From assembly GCA_051382335.1 (NCBI GenBank), contig JBBCAX010000150.1, positions 30,727 to 94,726 on the forward strand: a stretch of 64,000 nt of DNA. Reading direction: 5' to 3'. The position numbers were made by a program, and so were the translations under genes. This DNA comes from Deltaproteobacteria bacterium TL4. GTDB taxonomy: Bacteria > SAR324 > NAC60-12. Under the pieces are notes generated by a model. It was given only the letters and a program-made list of their open reading frames with translations, was not told the DNA's origin and searched no databases. Shown piece after piece: positions 54,298 to 64,000 of this stretch (position 1 is the stretch's first letter; every line of letters begins with the position of its first letter).

Positions 54298-55440
54298 TCA
54301 GAACCCAATAAAACTTCTCAACTCTTGATAACTTTCAATAATTTTTTGAGTTTTTTCTGTGGCCATTAGCCGTCTACGCTCGTTAGTCCCAGCTTTGTCG
54401 GGATGCCAGAAAGCGAGCAAATCCTTATACGCCTGCTTCATTTCATCAGTACTTGCGCCCACAGTCAGCTCCAAAGTAGCGTAGGCTTCCAGCAGTTTTG
54501 GCGGCAAAAGCGCTTCGGTTTCTTTAATCAAAGCCTGCTTCTTTTTCTGGAGTTCCGCTTCTTTTTTTATCAGTTTTTCTTCTGCTCGTTGAAGGAGGTT
54601 GGCAATATTGTTTTTCCCCGCTTCAGTAGCAAGAACCATGGGTGTTTTTCCATTCGAGGCTTTAATTCGAGGATCCGCCCCTTGTTCGAGCAGAACTTTA
54701 ACCACCGAAATGTGCCCCAGATTTGTGGCTTCCAATAAGGCGGTGGCTTTGTCTACCTGAATGAGGGAGGTCGGTTTGCCCATTTTATTAACATCGGCAC
54801 CCAGATCAATCAGGCACTTCACTACTTCAACTTCACCACAGTACGAAGCATAAATAATCGGTAAGGTTCCCTCATGATTAGGGACATTAATGTCAATGCC
54901 GTAACCATGTAAAAATTTAATCGAAGGAATGGCTTTCTGATGTGCGGCAGGAATCACCTCATTCAGGCAATACGCGCCATCCTCAGCACTGATTTTAGCC
55001 CCACATTTCAAGAGGTATTCAGCAATATCCAATTTGTGGCGGGCGATGGCCAACCAAAAAGCATTGAGCCCCTTAAAGGGAGCGCTTTTGCATTTTGCGT
55101 TAATATCCATCCCATGCTTGACCAAAAGATCAACTAATTCCAAATCTCCTTGTCGGACCGCGATCATCAAGATATTGCCGAACTTTTCATTTTCTACATA
55201 CAGGTCCGCGCCTGCTTCTATTAACGTTTTAATTACCTCAATTTGACCTTTGCGTTCTAAAGCGGATAATGCTGCGGCTGTTAAAGCATAATTATAGTCT
55301 CCTGAAATGCTAACATCAACCTCACCCACATATTTTAAATAGTTTTTGACAACCTCCAAGTCTCCTGTGTGTGCCGCAAAAACAAAGCGTTTGGGTTGGA
55401 TCGGAAATTTCTTATGAATAATTTCATTTATCAGCCCCAT
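54298..55440 (-). CDS. Ankyrin-repeat protein with a C-terminal J-domain
   Basis: Several ankyrin repeats (e.g. TALLEATNLGH..VVKVLLEQGAD); AYATLEL...MKQAYK.L..FWHPDK. Start may be TTG at 55452. Confidence 0.9.
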   Translation of the reverse strand: MGLINEIIHKKFPIQPKRFVFAAHTGDLEVVKNYLKYVGEVDVSISGDYNYALTAAALSALERKGQIEVIKTLIEAGADLYVENEKFGNILMIAVRQGDLELVDLLVKHGMDINAKCKSAPFKGLNAFWLAIARHKLDIAEYLLKCGAKISAEDGAYCLNEVIPAAHQKAIPSIKFLHGYGIDINVPNHEGTLPIIYASYCGEVEVVKCLIDLGADVNKMGKPTSLIQVDKATALLEATNLGHISVVKVLLEQGADPRIKASNGKTPMVLATEAGKNNIANLLQRAEEKLIKKEAELQKKKQALIKETEALLPPKLLEAYATLELTVGASTDEMKQAYKDLLAFWHPDKAGTNERRRLMATEKTQKIIESYQELRSFIGF

Positions 55441-55486
55441 ACTAACTCTCAACTATTTATAATGTGTCATTACCCGGAAAAACGCA

Positions 55487-58239: not shown

Positions 58240-58321
58240 TAGACATCTTTCCAAAAGAGAACCTGGATTTTAAAGGATTTGTGGGTATGAGCCTCCTCCT
58301 TTACAGCTTTTCAGAATTTCA
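58240..58321. repeat. Uninterrupted copy of the dispersed ~82-bp repeat at 34387-34571
   Basis: TAGACATCTTTCCAAAA-GA-GAACCTGGATTTTAAAGGATTTGTGGGTATGAGCCTC...CAGAATTTCA. Confidence 0.85.
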
Positions 58322-58389
58322 TCTGGTATATCGGCGATATATCCTTGGTCTTCTTCACAAGAAAATACATTTACAGGATAATCTTTCAT
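58321..58389 (-). pseudogene. hicB: HicB-like antitoxin, 5' fragment
   Basis: Manual translation MKDYPVNVFSCEEDQGYIADIPD; ATG overlaps the hicA stop (TAATG); cut off by the dispersed repeat. Confidence 0.7.
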
Positions 58390-58478
58390 TATTTATTCTC
58401 CATTTGAAGGTTGTATCGTTTGATTATCTGCAACAGTTGTTTAATCTGATAAGGTTTAGCTTTGCCTTTTACATTTTC
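58389..58478 (-). pseudogene. hicA: HicA-like toxin, 3' fragment
   Basis: Manual translation ENVKGKAKPYQIKQLLQIIKRYNLQMENK-stop; the GKAKPYQ.KQ motif is typical of HicA C-termini. Confidence 0.72.
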
Positions 58479-58500
58479 GCAACAGCGCGATGATTTCTAC

Positions 58501-58571
58501 GAATCGCCGTATGCGGAACCGCATGTATGATGGAGTGGGAGATGGCGGAGAAAAACCGCTACCTCCCCAAT
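58501..58571 (+). mobile_element. Group II intron (class C-like) remnant: domains V-VI only
   Basis: GAATCGCCGTATGCG-GAAC-CGCATGTATGATGG matches the IIC D5 pattern, followed by a D6-like GGGAG..GGCGG/CCGCT..CTCCC stem ending AAT; no RT ORF nearby. Confidence 0.72.
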
Positions 58572-58767
58572 TGGGGATTTTAAAATTGTACTAATTGTAA
58601 CCAAACTTATCTTAACTCCTGGTGAATACCGGTCAATTTTATTCCTACCTCAAAGCACTTTTTCTTGGAATTTTTGACGGACAGGATATGAACGATTTCC
58701 CCCATGGCCTTATAGATCAACTTACGACCATAAAATCCCAAGGTGATTTTTTCGCCTGGTGTTATTT

Positions 58768-61053
58768 TCATTCCAGGGGAATCTTGACCGTAAAAGTCGT
58801 TCCCTTGTGTAAAGTTGAGTCAATATATATTTTTCCCTTTAAGGAATCACGTATTGTGGTTAGCACAGCATCCATACCTACACCACGGCCTGAGACCGAA
58901 GTAACAGATTCGGCTGTGGAAAAGCCTGGTCGAAATATCAACTCTTGACTTTCCTTTTCTGTCAGAGCACGGGCTTCTTCGACTGAAATGAGGCCTTTCC
59001 GAAGGGCAACCTCCTTTAATTTTTCAGCATCAAGCCCCCTACCATCATCTGAAATAGAAATATTGAGGAATTGATCATCGCTACTAACCGTAAGTTTAAC
59101 CTGACCCTGTTCCGGTTTGCCTTGCGCTTTACGTTCCTCCCAAGGTTCGATCCCATGATCAAAGGAGTTGCGGATAAGATGAACAAGCGGAGTATTTAAC
59201 TCATTAGCCACATCGCAGTCAATCCTGGTTTTGTCTTCCACCGTAAAAGAAATATCTTTTTCAAGGCGTTCTATGAGTCCGGGAACGATTTTAATGGAAC
59301 GGGCCAGAGCTTTGTTAACGTCCAGTTGCCGCAATGTTCTCAGTCTGGAAACAATCTCTTTTTTAGGTTCATCCGGAATAAACATGGTCGAAATGTCATA
59401 CATCTGCTGTTTGATTTCACTGGAGGAAATACGAAGTTGAAGATCACCACTTTCGTCTAATATGTGTCCTAATAGTTTTTCTGTTTTTTCAGCCACTTCG
59501 CTCATTTCTCCAGTCAATTTAACAAGAGCCGCTTCGGTTTCTTCCATGACCTCTGCTGCGATTTCTGTACTTTCCCGCAAGTCGCTCAAGCTATTTTCCA
59601 ATTCCGCGGCAAGGCTGGCGATAGAGTCGAGATTGAAGGCTCCAGCAGTTCCCTTGATGGTGTGGACACCCCGAAACAGTTCATTAACTGCCGGGCGCGG
59701 GTCTTCTAATGTAACCATTTTATTTACCAGCGTTTTGGCATTCAGCAGTGTTTTCTTACCTTCTACCAGAAATTCACAGAAAAGATCAGCGTCTTCGGCA
59801 ATGGCTTTGAGGAAGTGGTTTTCCCCTACGGAAAGGGCCATTTCAGCTTCCATTTCTTTGGCGCTGGTGATATCTTCCATGACCACCAGGATGTCATTGG
59901 TTTTGTCTTTTCGTTCAATCACATGATATTCAAGATGAAGCCACGTACCTCTTTCATTATTCAGTTGCAGCTCAGCAAAAGGGTTCATCATCTGCATATC
60001 GTCTTCCGGCAGAAGTAATTGACGAAAAATATCCAAAAACTCCACCATCTTATTCCGATCCTCTCCTCTGCGTTTGGTGATTCCCAAAGTATCCAGGAAA
60101 TCCCGTCCCCGCAGTTCTTTCAGCCCCAGAATCTTCTCACAAGCAGAGGAATACTCAGGATTGATACGAAGATCCTGGTTGACGGAAAGAAGTCCGACTG
60201 GCACCGTATTCATAATCATTCGCATTTCCGCACTGCGTTCAGCCACGAGTTTGTCCAGATTACTCATGGTTTCGTTAATGGTTTTAAGCATGAGATTGAA
60301 AGCCTTTGCCAGTTTTCCCAGTTGTTCGTCCTCATGTTCAGGCATCTCCGCAGCAAAGTTGCCCTCAGAGACAGCGGAAATTGTATCAACAATTTCATCA
60401 ATTAAAGCGCCTCGAAAAATATCTTTTTCTTTAAGGGTTTCGCATTCCTGTTCACGTTTCTTGGTCCATGAAACATTTTGTGTTCTTAGGTTTTCATACT
60501 CTTTTTCCAGTTTTCGGATTGCGTCTATGGCCAACTCTGCCAGGTTTTGGGATGGGGGAAGCTTTTCAGCTATCTGTTCCGCACCGGCTACGATCTCAAC
60601 TTTAGACACCTCGGTTTTTGGGTCCCCGTCCGCTTGTCCGTTTTCCTTTGCCTGTGGTTTTTGTTTCACAACCATGTTTTCGGCTTTTTTGATAAGATCC
60701 TCCAACGTTGAGTTTCCATCAAACTTGGTTCCAACATCCGCACCTGTCTTTGCGACAATAAGCGCCCGTCGAGCCTGATTAACAAAACAACTGTCATTAT
60801 GGCTTTCCTCACACTGTCCACAAAGCCCTCCGACCGCTTTCAGCGCTTTGTCGAGTTCAGGCATCTCATATTGAGAGGAATCTTCGGGCAATTGTTCAAT
60901 AACATTTTCCGAATTGACCTGCCGATGATTCTTGACAAAGTCCATGAGAATATTGGCTGCCAGATTTGCCAAGGTATGCTCATTTCCCTTTCCCGCGATT
61001 TTCTTTGTTAATTGATGGGCCTTAAATGTATCTTTATGACTTCCTACCGGCAT
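58768..61053 (-). CDS. Soluble CheA-like histidine kinase: Cys/His N-terminal domain, HAMP, PAS, Hpt, HATPase; no CheW domain
   Basis: CGQCEESHNDSC; HAMP (EQLGKLAKAFNLM); PAS (MNTVPVGLL..INPEYS); LFRGVHTIKG; LVHLIRNSFDHGIE, DDGRGLD, IFRPGFSTA..VSGRGVGMD; ends FTVKIPLE; no TM. Confidence 0.92.
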   Translation of the reverse strand: MPVGSHKDTFKAHQLTKKIAGKGNEHTLANLAANILMDFVKNHRQVNSENVIEQLPEDSSQYEMPELDKALKAVGGLCGQCEESHNDSCFVNQARRALIVAKTGADVGTKFDGNSTLEDLIKKAENMVVKQKPQAKENGQADGDPKTEVSKVEIVAGAEQIAEKLPPSQNLAELAIDAIRKLEKEYENLRTQNVSWTKKREQECETLKEKDIFRGALIDEIVDTISAVSEGNFAAEMPEHEDEQLGKLAKAFNLMLKTINETMSNLDKLVAERSAEMRMIMNTVPVGLLSVNQDLRINPEYSSACEKILGLKELRGRDFLDTLGITKRRGEDRNKMVEFLDIFRQLLLPEDDMQMMNPFAELQLNNERGTWLHLEYHVIERKDKTNDILVVMEDITSAKEMEAEMALSVGENHFLKAIAEDADLFCEFLVEGKKTLLNAKTLVNKMVTLEDPRPAVNELFRGVHTIKGTAGAFNLDSIASLAAELENSLSDLRESTEIAAEVMEETEAALVKLTGEMSEVAEKTEKLLGHILDESGDLQLRISSSEIKQQMYDISTMFIPDEPKKEIVSRLRTLRQLDVNKALARSIKIVPGLIERLEKDISFTVEDKTRIDCDVANELNTPLVHLIRNSFDHGIEPWEERKAQGKPEQGQVKLTVSSDDQFLNISISDDGRGLDAEKLKEVALRKGLISVEEARALTEKESQELIFRPGFSTAESVTSVSGRGVGMDAVLTTIRDSLKGKIYIDSTLHKGTTFTVKIPLE

Positions 61054-61066
61054 AGTTTTTTCTCCA

Positions 61067-61642
61067 TTATATTTTTCCCATGGGATTCATAATATTAAAA
61101 TTTGCTGAAATCGTTGTAAATTCAAGACAACCTGAGGTACACCACCTGGCGCAAATACCACATAGGATACAAGTTCTGCTCTGTATGTGGGCAAGATTAT
61201 TCGTGACACGGATACTGGAATCGTCACAAGCAATGACACATCGTCCGCATCCAATACAACCTTGCAGACAAAATTGTTTTTGAGCTTCCTCGTCAAGTTT
61301 ACTGCGGCAAAGAACCTGAATGCGAAGGTTTCGACCTGTTAAGTTCATCGTTTTCCGTGGGCAGACGGAAACACATAAACCACAGCCAACGCATTTATCC
61401 CGATCAATGACCGGGAGCATTTTAGCCGAAAGTTGAATGGCTTCTTCCTCGCAAACTTTTTGACAATCCCCCAGTCCTAGACACCCAAAGGAACAAACTG
61501 TATCTGGTTGGCTTTCGTGAGCGGCAGCACAGGTATCAAACTGTTTAGCTAAACGTCGGCGCGAATTAAACTTTCCCCCACGACATCGGACAAGAGCAAC
61601 CTTACGTTTTTTTTCGGAACTCACTGAATTCTTTTCCACCAT
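61067..61642 (-). CDS. RnfB-like polyferredoxin lacking the N-terminal anchor
   Basis: 21 Cys; VALVRCRGG, CSFGCLGLGDCQKVC, CVGCGLCVSVCP, CIGCGRCVIAC, CILCGICARWC. ATG overlaps the upstream TGA; alternative GTG at 61645. Confidence 0.88.
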   Translation of the reverse strand: MVEKNSVSSEKKRKVALVRCRGGKFNSRRRLAKQFDTCAAAHESQPDTVCSFGCLGLGDCQKVCEEEAIQLSAKMLPVIDRDKCVGCGLCVSVCPRKTMNLTGRNLRIQVLCRSKLDEEAQKQFCLQGCIGCGRCVIACDDSSIRVTNNLAHIQSRTCILCGICARWCTSGCLEFTTISANFNIMNPMGKI

Positions 61643-62736
61643 CACCTTAGATTAAGGTCAGTTCTCATGGTGTTCACTCCTACTCCCCGTGCTAAGGAAC
61701 GGAACAACTTCTGAACAACATCATACCCCATCTCAACGCCTTCAAATGCAGAAGACACCTTCGCAATAACATCCCCTTGGCGTTTTTCGGCTTCCTGACG
61801 GCCCAAACGTTCAAGGACCTTATAGAGACGTTCCCCTTTATTGGCTTGGGATTCATACCATTCCAGAATTCGTTTGATCAACGGGACCACCTCCTTTTGA
61901 GTCACGCTCTCAGTCAGTTTAATTCCTTGAAAATGAACGGCGCTGGCCGCACCTCCCACAAAGATGGCGTAGGTTCCCTCTTGAGCGATCAAACCAATAT
62001 CGACACAAAAACATTCCATACAATTTCTGGCACAATCAGATATCGCGATTTTTACATCGAATTTCATGGGAAGACCGAACAAGGCGTTGTCTACTTCTAT
62101 GGCAAGACCTAACGCATCCGTTCCCTGGGATAAATGACAAAGAGCTCCACAGCATCCGCGAATGTTCCGGATTCCGTGATGGAGCACGCCCACGCGAAGA
62201 CCGACGGATTCCATGTCTTTTGACACGGTTTCTATCTGCTCTGGTTTAAGAAGTAAGATCACACGTTGAGCATGGGTTAATTTAGCGACCCCTGCTCCCT
62301 GTTTGGTGATTTCAGCAATCTTTGCCAACTGATCTCCATTCAGCAACCCTGCTGGAACGTTGACCAAAGTGGCAAAGGCTCCATTCGTTTGTTTAAGTCC
62401 CAAGGCCCACAGGGGGTGGTCTCCTTCGTCTTTTTTCGAACCGGATTTCCCTTTGAGAAAATTAATGGTCATTTCCGTATAGCGGTCATCTAGCGCCATC
62501 ACCTCAATAGTAATGGCGTAACCTTCGCCTGCTTCTTTACAATCGACCACCTTTCCTTTTACCTCCACAATATCGCCAATTGGCAGATCAACCCCAAAAT
62601 AAACAATAGTTTCTGATTCAGCTTCATCATCGCTTCCCACAACCGTTGTGAAAGATTCCTTTACCTCTACCAAGTTTTCTGCCAGTCCAATTTCCTCATA
62701 ATCCAGTATTACATCTTCTATAATGATCTCTGCCAT
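61642..62736 (-). CDS. Nitrite/sulfite reductase ferredoxin-like plus 4Fe-4S/siroheme-type domain protein with an extra N-terminal (PilZ-like) domain
   Basis: VPAGLLNGDQLAKIAEI..KLTHAQRV; RNIRGCCGALC; KIAISDCARNC...DIGL; GERLYKVLERLG; GAGGAG RBS. Confidence 0.85.
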   Translation of the reverse strand: MAEIIIEDVILDYEEIGLAENLVEVKESFTTVVGSDDEAESETIVYFGVDLPIGDIVEVKGKVVDCKEAGEGYAITIEVMALDDRYTEMTINFLKGKSGSKKDEGDHPLWALGLKQTNGAFATLVNVPAGLLNGDQLAKIAEITKQGAGVAKLTHAQRVILLLKPEQIETVSKDMESVGLRVGVLHHGIRNIRGCCGALCHLSQGTDALGLAIEVDNALFGLPMKFDVKIAISDCARNCMECFCVDIGLIAQEGTYAIFVGGAASAVHFQGIKLTESVTQKEVVPLIKRILEWYESQANKGERLYKVLERLGRQEAEKRQGDVIAKVSSAFEGVEMGYDVVQKLFRSLARGVGVNTMRTDLNLR

Positions 62737-62812: not shown

Positions 62813-64000
62813 TTATGAGGCTTTTCGTGTTATCGATTTTAAACAATTTGCTACTAAACGCAAAGATTTTTCTGTAATCTTGGCAAACTCGATACCCACT
62901 GTTCCTTTTTCCCCGTTTTCTTTGTTTTGCGTTGGATCAGTTAGTGGTGTAATCTCAGCAAACTCGATACCCACTGTTCCTTTTTCTTCATTTTCAAGAA
63001 CTTTTGTTTCTTTTTCCCCATTTTCTTTGTTTTGCGTTGGATCAGTTAGTGGTGTTTTGTCTTTAATAATCGGCTGATTTTGAGAGTTATGGATGCGGCC
63101 AATATTTGCCATAGTTTTTTGGAGTTTTTCAAAAGAAATGATCTCTTGAATTTGAGGGTCCATTTTTAATACCTGTTCCAGGTAAAATAAGCCCTGGAAG
63201 TGTGCCTTTAAATCGAGCATACTGGTAGAATTGGCATCCTGTATTTGTGATGCGATAATGCGTGAAAAGTTCACCATAAACATCGATAAATTGGCTGCGT
63301 TTTTGACCTGAGTTTCTTCGATATTCATAAAGTCCTCAAGACCCCAATACTGTTTGGCATCTCGAAAAGTAAATTCAATTTGGAAGCGCAAACGATAATA
63401 ATGAATCATATTGTCCCAAGACAATTCGAGATCATTACTGTACAAAATAACCTGAGCCACTTTATCATCAGAAATTCGTCGATGTTGGATGATTGTAACA
63501 TTGAGAGGGTCCGGAAAATCTTTATGTAACAACTCGCTCTGATAGGTTTTTTCCTCTATTCCATCTTTCAACGTTGTTTCTACCAAATATTCAGCAGGAA
63601 GATTGCTATAGTTGACCTTGTTTCCATATTTTTTTTTGGCTCCTTTTCCATTTTGCTCTCCTTTGTAGGGAAACCACAAAGCTGACTTACATTGAAGTTT
63701 GGAGATCAATGACAATCCACAACCTTTGACCATTTGTAGGCATTCATTGTTACCAAAAGCGCCGTCATAGACAAAGTAGGCAATCTGAATCCGGGTTCCA
63801 ATCATCTTAAGCGTTTTAAGAATATGTTCTTGGAGACATTTCAAATAGTCGGTTAATTCAGCATCTTGACTGTTTTTATTTTTACTCCCTTTAGGTCGTC
63901 CTCGTTGACCCTTTCCTTTTTTTTCTTTTTTGATTTTCGTCTCTCTTTTCATATCAGGATCTAAGGGTTCCATGAGCAAGGGAGAGGCTTGTCCGGAAGA
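62813..64000 (-). CDS. DDE transposase, 5'-truncated by the window edge
   Basis: Frame open to 64000; RGRPKGSKNK, VYDGAFG, YRLRFQIEFTFRDAKQ (YxxRxxIExxFRxxK signature). Confidence 0.92.
   Translation of the reverse strand, partial: SSGQASPLLMEPLDPDMKRETKIKKEKKGKGQRGRPKGSKNKNSQDAELTDYLKCLQEHILKTLKMIGTRIQIAYFVYDGAFGNNECLQMVKGCGLSLISKLQCKSALWFPYKGEQNGKGAKKKYGNKVNYSNLPAEYLVETTLKDGIEEKTYQSELLHKDFPDPLNVTIIQHRRISDDKVAQVILYSNDLELSWDNMIHYYRLRFQIEFTFRDAKQYWGLEDFMNIEETQVKNAANLSMFMVNFSRIIASQIQDANSTSMLDLKAHFQGLFYLEQVLKMDPQIQEIISFEKLQKTMANIGRIHNSQNQPIIKDKTPLTDPTQNKENGEKETKVLENEEKGTVGIEFAEITPLTDPTQNKENGEKGTVGIEFAKITEKSLRLVANCLKSITRKAS
62883..63055. repeat. Interleaved direct repeats in the transposase 3' end
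   Basis: GCAAACTCGATACCCACTGTTCCTTTTT twice and TTTTCTTTGTTTTGCGTTGGATCAGTTAGTGGTGT twice; protein TPLTDPTQNKENGEK x2 and EKGTVGIEFA x2. Confidence 0.9.

Follow-up and report, generated by a model that had tools for sequence, protein, structure and literature searches.

A window of 64,000 nucleotides from Deltaproteobacteria bacterium TL4 (contig JBBCAX010000150.1; by the window we mean this whole stretch of analysed DNA) carries three genes on the minus strand that encode a protein related to nitrite and sulfite reductases (NIR/SIR-like), a polyferredoxin and a CheA-type kinase without a CheW domain (Table 1). The original prediction, made from the sequence of the window, had taken this trio to be the unit, with the ferredoxin as a step of an electron relay towards the kinase. 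We found, however, that the conserved unit is a pair, the NIR/SIR-like gene followed by a signalling gene, and that the N-terminal domain of the kinase together with its HAMP domain forms a separate, swappable input module that had gone unnoticed. The pair is very probably a functional signalling unit, and the combination of an altered reductase-like partner with an input module that swaps its outputs likely represents an undescribed form of intracellular redox or gas sensing.

A search with the NIR/SIR-like gene returned three genome and 28 metagenome loci, of which one encoding a true NirB (L031) was removed, leaving 30. The N-terminal domain of the kinase opens the next intact gene in 27 of the 30, that is, in 27 of the 27 that can be read, as the other three end before this gene can be seen (one of the 27, L016, is partial at a contig end, and in two, the duplicates L029 and L030, the NIR/SIR-like gene is broken). 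The possibility raised with the original prediction, that homologues would not lie together in other genomes, thus did not hold for the pair. The ferredoxin, in contrast, was absent after the NIR/SIR-like gene in 26 of 28 readable loci, with a ferredoxin in L019 and a short remnant in L002, and we rejected the obligatory trio. The reverse search, with the input domain, found the NIR/SIR-like gene directly upstream in all three new genomes where this could be tested (G406, G990 and G991, each of which has a phosphatase as its output; a fourth, G426, starts at the end of its contig). In addition, 27 of 51 input-domain proteins could be matched, indirectly through an assembly statistic, to the same assembly as an NIR/SIR-like homologue (a shifted control gave a mean of 0.08 and a maximum of 2), and 20 of these 27 pairs are less than 70% identical to one another. 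These sets (the 30 loci, the assembly matches and the input-domain genomes) overlap and are not additive; counts from a 714-position, kinase-dominated model, from which L034, L035, L036 and L094 came, were not used. Pairing with the NIR/SIR-like gene is established for kinase and phosphatase outputs, not for HD or HisKA ones. The Mantel correlation between the partners was 0.83, which reflects their shared descent, not co-evolution.

The pair or its module comes from Ca. Magnetomorum, Desulfobacterales, Syntrophobacteraceae, Ca. Riflebacteria, Ca. Wallbacteria and one Planctomycetes record. It is rare: it was found in one of 88 genomes of the window's phylum and in three of 401 in one class, and 401 genomes of the phylum of that class gave three strong and two weak matches. 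No response regulator gene is conserved beside the pair, and no cognate regulator was identified. Local followers of the pair include a SiaB-family kinase (L034:1769-2311), a DsrE-family protein (L003:11535-11885) and a metallo-beta-lactamase-fold hydrolase (L001:6965-7918), the last likewise present in five further related loci. No published description of the system was found under the topics of siroheme with a kinase or sensor, CheW-less CheA-like kinases and PilZ with nitrite reductase, in a search outside which most subscription papers fell; this agrees with the view in the original prediction that the combination is not a recognised, characterised system.

The input domain was predicted with confidence to fold as five helices (predicted local distance difference test score, pLDDT, 86). 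The window's copy matched no Pfam family, and the domain gave no Foldseek match at E 0.001 and no usable Atlas match; the best structural match by VIA (Z 5.6) was to ferritin-like bundles, possibly just a common arrangement. These failed matches do not show a new fold. A variable linker (6.6% identity, with 103-151 residues from C89 to H240) separates the domain from HAMP, which is itself more conserved than the ATPase (71.5% versus 54.5% identity). HAMP is 52-71% identical in eight non-kinase proteins, and 11-28% identical in five related kinases with other inputs. Among 51 proteins with the input module (418-1332 residues) the output is a CheW-less kinase in 44, a SiaA-like SpoIIE phosphatase in four, an HD domain, predicted to degrade cyclic-di-GMP, in two and HisKA in one. 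In the opposite case, CHASE4 occupies the same slot in a kinase whose core is 48% identical, and no NIR/SIR-like gene lies within 11 kb of it. The link to motility suggested originally is not borne out, as the same module is also the input of phosphatase, HD and HisKA proteins.

More distant relatives of the input domain either stand alone, with a further Cys cluster, or are joined to MshE-type cyclic-di-GMP-binding motifs, and C78, C81, H85 and C89 are invariant even in the distant stand-alone ones. Where the stand-alone relatives have an N-terminal Cys cluster, the paired subfamily has a fixed MPVGSHKDAF...HQ surface instead. One stand-alone relative matched solely clusters of hypothetical proteins. 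The MshE-type fusions were seen at L138:5070-5828 and L139:5899-6657, neither locus having an NIR/SIR-like gene, and in P0112 and P0113.

The C-terminal part of the kinase matched NF041336 (residues 575-759, E 2.7e-59). We could not detect a CheW match in it, and in 45 relatives at most 66 further residues follow the ATPase. No H-kinase_dim match was obtained with Pfam at E 0.05, a model known to be insensitive, and region 531-610 was not folded. In a recent survey of CheA sequences, 100% of them have a CheW domain (PMC10542144). The window kinase is not CheA, because it lacks the CheW domain that all surveyed CheA have. The absence of CheW, a point of the original prediction, was thus confirmed, but it does not make the kinase special: 12 of 15 CheA-like open reading frames checked in the genome have the Hpt motif and likewise end, at most 61 residues past the G2 box, without CheW, and we discarded this absence as a novelty. 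CheW-less CheA-type kinases form a large expansion, at least 12 others, which differ in their N-termini, lying on contigs C30, C77, C84, C135, C238, C250, C267, C281, C322, C388, C401 and C435 of the same genome (G000), which elsewhere has 44 CheW matches and 37 matches to methyl-accepting chemotaxis protein domains.

The NIR/SIR-like protein consists of about 104 residues unassigned by Pfam followed by NIR_SIR_ferr and NIR_SIR domains. Its model (pLDDT 92) matches the reductase domain of Fsr (PDB 7np8) with Z 23.4 and a root mean square deviation (rmsd) of 2.1 over 214 aligned residues (Foldseek E 1e-13), and the four cluster cysteines, Cys195, Cys200, Cys235 and Cys239, are invariant in the family. 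In Fsr the ligand is bound by R355, R423, K460 and K462, and the cysteine motif is CX5C-Xn-CX3C (PMC10229431). Here we found Cx4C in 61 of 61 homologues and Cx5C in none, so that the canonical motif is lacking. The four anion-binding positions, mapped by hand on a HMMER alignment, are occupied by L124, R190, D227 and K229, two of them (R190 and K229) being kept. Position 124 is never Arg in the 61 homologues, and position 227 is Asp in 57 of them, where Fsr and a true NirB have Lys. Q157, R158, R190, K229, E241, E302 and R303 agree with NirB; the protein is not a full-length NirB, as it scored 96 bits against a curated 578, matched profile positions 554-753 only and has no FAD/NAD domain. Judged from sequence and fold, the protein appears to have the build of a sulfite or nitrite reductase with an altered substrate pocket. 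H155, H186 and C244 are also invariant in the family and are absent from stand-alone NIR/SIR-like proteins of 210 residues (P0082-P0087), the nearest outgroup, in which the spacing is Cx4C and the third anion-binding position is not Lys. In a quick version of the family tree the three ferredoxin-bearing loci did not form one group.

The original label of a PilZ-like domain for the acidic N-terminal part stands as a weak fold resemblance: when modelled within the whole protein (the domain was not folded alone), it matched four PilZ-containing chains, including the BcsA PilZ domain, MotI and XAC1133, with Z 5.0-5.3 and an rmsd of 3.4-3.8 over 74-83 aligned residues. There was no Pfam match, and the cyclic-di-GMP motifs of PilZ domains, RxxxR and [DN]xSxxG, are each present in only two of 61 N-termini. 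Because the domain is acidic, the PilZ match weak and the motifs lacking, it is more likely to make a protein contact than to bind cyclic-di-GMP.

The polyferredoxin has 21 Cys, Fer4 repeats and three CxxCxxCxxxC motifs, and matches the C-terminal part of RnfB (about profile positions 93-265, starting at 93-97, all scores being under the RnfB cut-offs). With this start and no hydrophobic segment, it has neither the membrane anchor nor the N-terminal Fe-S domain of RnfB, and it shares 36.6% identity over 145 residues with the RnfB-like protein that the genome encodes. It is also not part of an rnf operon: RnfD-family matches lie on C25, C62 and C129 and not on C150, and the rnf-like clusters of the genome, on C25 and C62, are apart from it. 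The L019 ferredoxin is 47% identical over 130 residues, and in the window, in L019 and, as a remnant, in L002 the ferredoxin overlaps the NIR/SIR-like gene. By sequence, the ferredoxin is best described as a local, optional accessory apparently derived from an RnfB-like gene.

What does the reductase-like partner do? We put at even the chance that it has been repurposed as a sensor subunit for the input module. It would then be a homodimer, on the model of Fsr and other single-repeat enzymes, with a predicted siroheme-[4Fe-4S] centre, and would likely dock on the Cys3-His (input) domain and HAMP of the kinase. The redox or ligand state of the centre would pass to the input module and then, via HAMP, to the output, switching autophosphorylation at His464 in the kinase. 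Because the variable linker parts the Cys3-His domain from HAMP, the signal would probably pass by docking and not along a rigid helix. The likeliest signal would be a small ligand or oxidant reaching the heme iron (nitrite or nitric oxide (NO), sulfide or sulfite, O2) or the state of the cell's pool of low-potential electrons, with which the RnfB-derived ferredoxin of this genome would link the centre if it does not simply re-reduce it. The fullest version, in which a siroheme-[4Fe-4S] module has turned from enzyme to receptor and, docked on the Cys3-His/HAMP adaptor, reports nitrite/NO, sulfide/sulfite or redox state to interchangeable kinase, phosphatase and cyclic-di-GMP outputs across several phyla, we propose tentatively, as somewhat less than an even prospect. 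We know of no earlier signalling role for siroheme. A complex prediction with one copy of the NIR/SIR-like protein and kinase residues 1-127 gave 0.28 against a mark of 0.32; controls were not folded, and HAMP and a dimer were not part of the prediction.

Several observations weigh against a sensor subunit that works through the pair. Of the 30 loci, 15 come under a single assembly prefix and a further two are duplicates, and they are therefore not independent. No assembly match was obtained for 24 of the 51 input-domain proteins, among them the two with HD and the one with HisKA. The input domain has a metal-ligand-like motif of its own, and its distant relatives occur without an NIR/SIR-like partner. 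A true NirB, too, has no Arg where L124 stands, and relatives that stand alone and lack the N-terminal domain (P0082, P0084 and P0086) have Cx4C and Ala at 227; some of the pocket changes thus appear to predate the pairing and need not mean lost catalysis. Finally, the window's genome has no clear precorrin-2 dehydrogenase (TIGR01470 and tblastn gave none, and the best PF13241 match was E 1.2e-5). SUMT and CbiX matches are present in it, and the supply of siroheme there appears uncertain; in the four other genomes checked, which carry the module too, the dehydrogenase match is strong, and SUMT is present in all five. In favour of the sensor subunit, the window's genome encodes a separate protein of 750 residues with two NIR_SIR matches (G000:C173:17492-19744), which could supply assimilation.

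The invariance of C78, C81, H85 and C89 out to the distant stand-alone relatives, and the MshE-type fusions without a reductase-like neighbour in two of two loci, would fit an alternative that stays near the originally proposed relay, namely that the Cys3-His domain is itself the sensor, with a metal or Fe-S site that the NIR/SIR-like protein oxidises, reduces or loads. The ferredoxin would be the donor where present, and its overlap with the NIR/SIR-like gene at the three loci that keep it or its remnant is consistent with this role; it is, however, missing from nearly all readable loci, and the fixed surface that replaces the N-terminal Cys cluster in the paired subfamily looks more like a docking site. 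We regard this alternative as unlikely, but as the most plausible of those considered.

Two further alternatives concern the reductase-like protein itself, and both seem improbable to us. It might be a working small reductase, like alSir or Dsr-LP, for another substrate, co-transcribed with the signalling gene and making no contact with its product, as could be suggested by the invariance of the four cluster cysteines, of R190 and K229 and of numerous basic residues in common with NirB; for group II Fsr, in which arginines are replaced, another substrate has also been proposed (PMC10229431). Yet Dsr-LPs keep three or four anion-binding residues (PMC3448663), against two plus an Asp here. Moreover, the surroundings of the pair hold no conserved gene for an electron donor, a transporter or a pathway, and the NIR/SIR-like gene stays attached as the output domain changes. 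With a similarly low probability, the protein could bind [4Fe-4S] without siroheme, or another tetrapyrrole, and report iron-sulfur, oxygen or tetrapyrrole status. The shortened Cx4C loop in every homologue, the extra invariant C244, H155 and H186, the lack of a clear precorrin-2 dehydrogenase in the window's genome and the presence of the same cluster domain in IspG (Z 9.0), which has no siroheme, all point this way; the residues shared with NirB form the pattern that we would expect for siroheme binding, and this, the strong dehydrogenase matches in four of five genomes and the SUMT matches in all five argue for a siroheme protein. The sensor-subunit reading stays ahead of each of these.

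Among known proteins, the single-repeat siroheme reductases (Fsr 7np8, group I Dsr-LP, alSir and the C-terminal part of NirB) are closest to the NIR/SIR-like protein, sharing the fold, the four cluster cysteines and the second and fourth anion residues (PMC10229431, PMC3448663). The protein studied here differs from them in Cx4C in place of Cx5C, in Asp for Lys at the third position, in the absence of the first Arg, and in having the acidic PilZ-like domain, C-terminal helices and a fixed signalling neighbour. CheA shares the Hpt histidine motif and the CheA-type ATPase boxes with the kinase (PMC10542144), whereas here CheW is absent and Hpt is internal, behind the input module. RnfB resembles the polyferredoxin in its C-terminal part; here its N-terminal membrane helix, first Fe-S domain and rnf cluster position are all absent. 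Phosphatase versions of the system match SiaA (E 6e-74, under cut-off), one of them being followed by a SiaB-family kinase; this likeness holds for those relatives, not for the kinase version in the window.

Class III histidine kinases, which have reportedly been described by Wuichet and Zhulin in 2010 and by Adebali et al. in 2017, start with an input and HAMP, continue with Hpt and a CheA-type ATPase, and lack CheW. The window kinase has the same order and matches this definition, but it differs in being fully soluble, in its Cys3-His input domain and in its dedicated partner gene. In the regulatory hydrogenase HoxBC/HupUV with HoxJ/HupT, and in H-NOX or NosP with their kinases, an enzyme-like or heme protein lies beside a soluble signalling protein and is proposed to control it. 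The likeness to these systems is one of arrangement, no sequence relation being expected; compared with them, a siroheme-type module with a docking domain would be new.

Table 1. Positions in the window of the three genes and of the domains and signals within them
Feature	Position	Strand	Remarks
NIR/SIR-like protein, single-repeat (364 aa)	61642-62736	minus	Proposed sensor subunit; open reading frame and Pfam
Acidic N-terminal beta domain, residues 1-104	62425-62736	minus	26 D/E versus 9 K/R; weak PilZ-like fold match
Polyferredoxin (191 aa counted from ATG)	61067-61642	minus	Soluble; optional accessory
GGAG ribosome-binding-site-like sequence	61062-61065	minus	Within 13-nt gap preceding kinase gene; from sequence
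CheW-less CheA-type kinase (761 aa)	58768-61053	minus	Soluble; input domain, variable linker, HAMP, PAS-like region, Hpt (His464), HATPase
Helical input domain, residues 1-125	60679-61053	minus	H6, H13, C78, C81, H85, C89 invariant in 45/45 kinases
HAMP, residues 206-270	60244-60438	minus	Pfam E 1.4e-4, under cut-off; accompanies input domain across all output types
Hpt domain	59524-59778	minus	PF01627 E 1.4e-10; His464 invariant in 45/45
CheA-type HATPase	58771-59190	minus	N, G1 and G2 box residues invariant in 45/45; protein ends here

The tight coupling of the three genes that was originally described is seen in the sequence, with a TGATG overlap at 61640-61644 joining the NIR/SIR-like and polyferredoxin genes and the spaced ribosome-binding-site-like sequence before the kinase gene; the polyferredoxin frame also has an in-frame GTG at 61645 besides its ATG start. 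The highest 19-residue hydropathy windows in the three proteins (1.40, 1.15 and 0.81) indicate no membrane segment, as predicted, and no signal peptide was evident from reading their N-termini alone. Within the window no che, rnf or assimilation gene lies beside the trio, and the contig ends upstream past a transposase; within this view the predicted lack of such flanks is correct, and we rejected the idea that the genes are a fragment of a described che or rnf cluster. The wider claim of a soluble signalling unit around a reductase-like Fe-S protein, independent of methyl-accepting chemotaxis proteins, is upheld for the conserved pair.

The transposase, of the DDE type (62813-64000, minus strand; best match IS701 family, under cut-off), runs off the contig end, has a duplicated C-terminal stretch with a ITPLTDPTQNKENGEK-type repeat and stops 76 nt before the NIR/SIR-like gene. 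Downstream of the kinase gene Pfam identified a serA-like gene, and a gene on this side is one that we take to be serC. The G+C content of the operon resembles that of the genome, promoter-like sites around it are at chance level (10 versus 9.1), and the region has no Rfam match. Two short overlapping frames at 58273-58480 (minus strand) have no Pfam match and resemble remnants of a hicA/hicB pair, while the sequence around 58500-58575 (plus strand), with no Rfam match at E 0.1, we take to resemble a remnant of domain V/VI of a group II intron. An ankyrin-repeat protein with a C-terminal DnaJ domain is encoded at 54298-55452 (minus strand).

That a soluble kinase has an accessory sensor at its side is a known logic; the parts here are new. 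If our interpretation is true, bacterial signalling gains a sensory input that makes use of a reductase cofactor familiar from catalysis, together with an uncatalogued input domain. Kinases of the class III type, the control of which has been little studied, would gain a soluble two-protein system. The rarity of the module limits its ecological weight. Three proteins among the full-length matches are annotated as nitrite reductase large subunit, and such annotations may wrongly imply nitrite reduction in metagenome surveys. As all of the parts are soluble, the mechanism would be open to testing in vitro.

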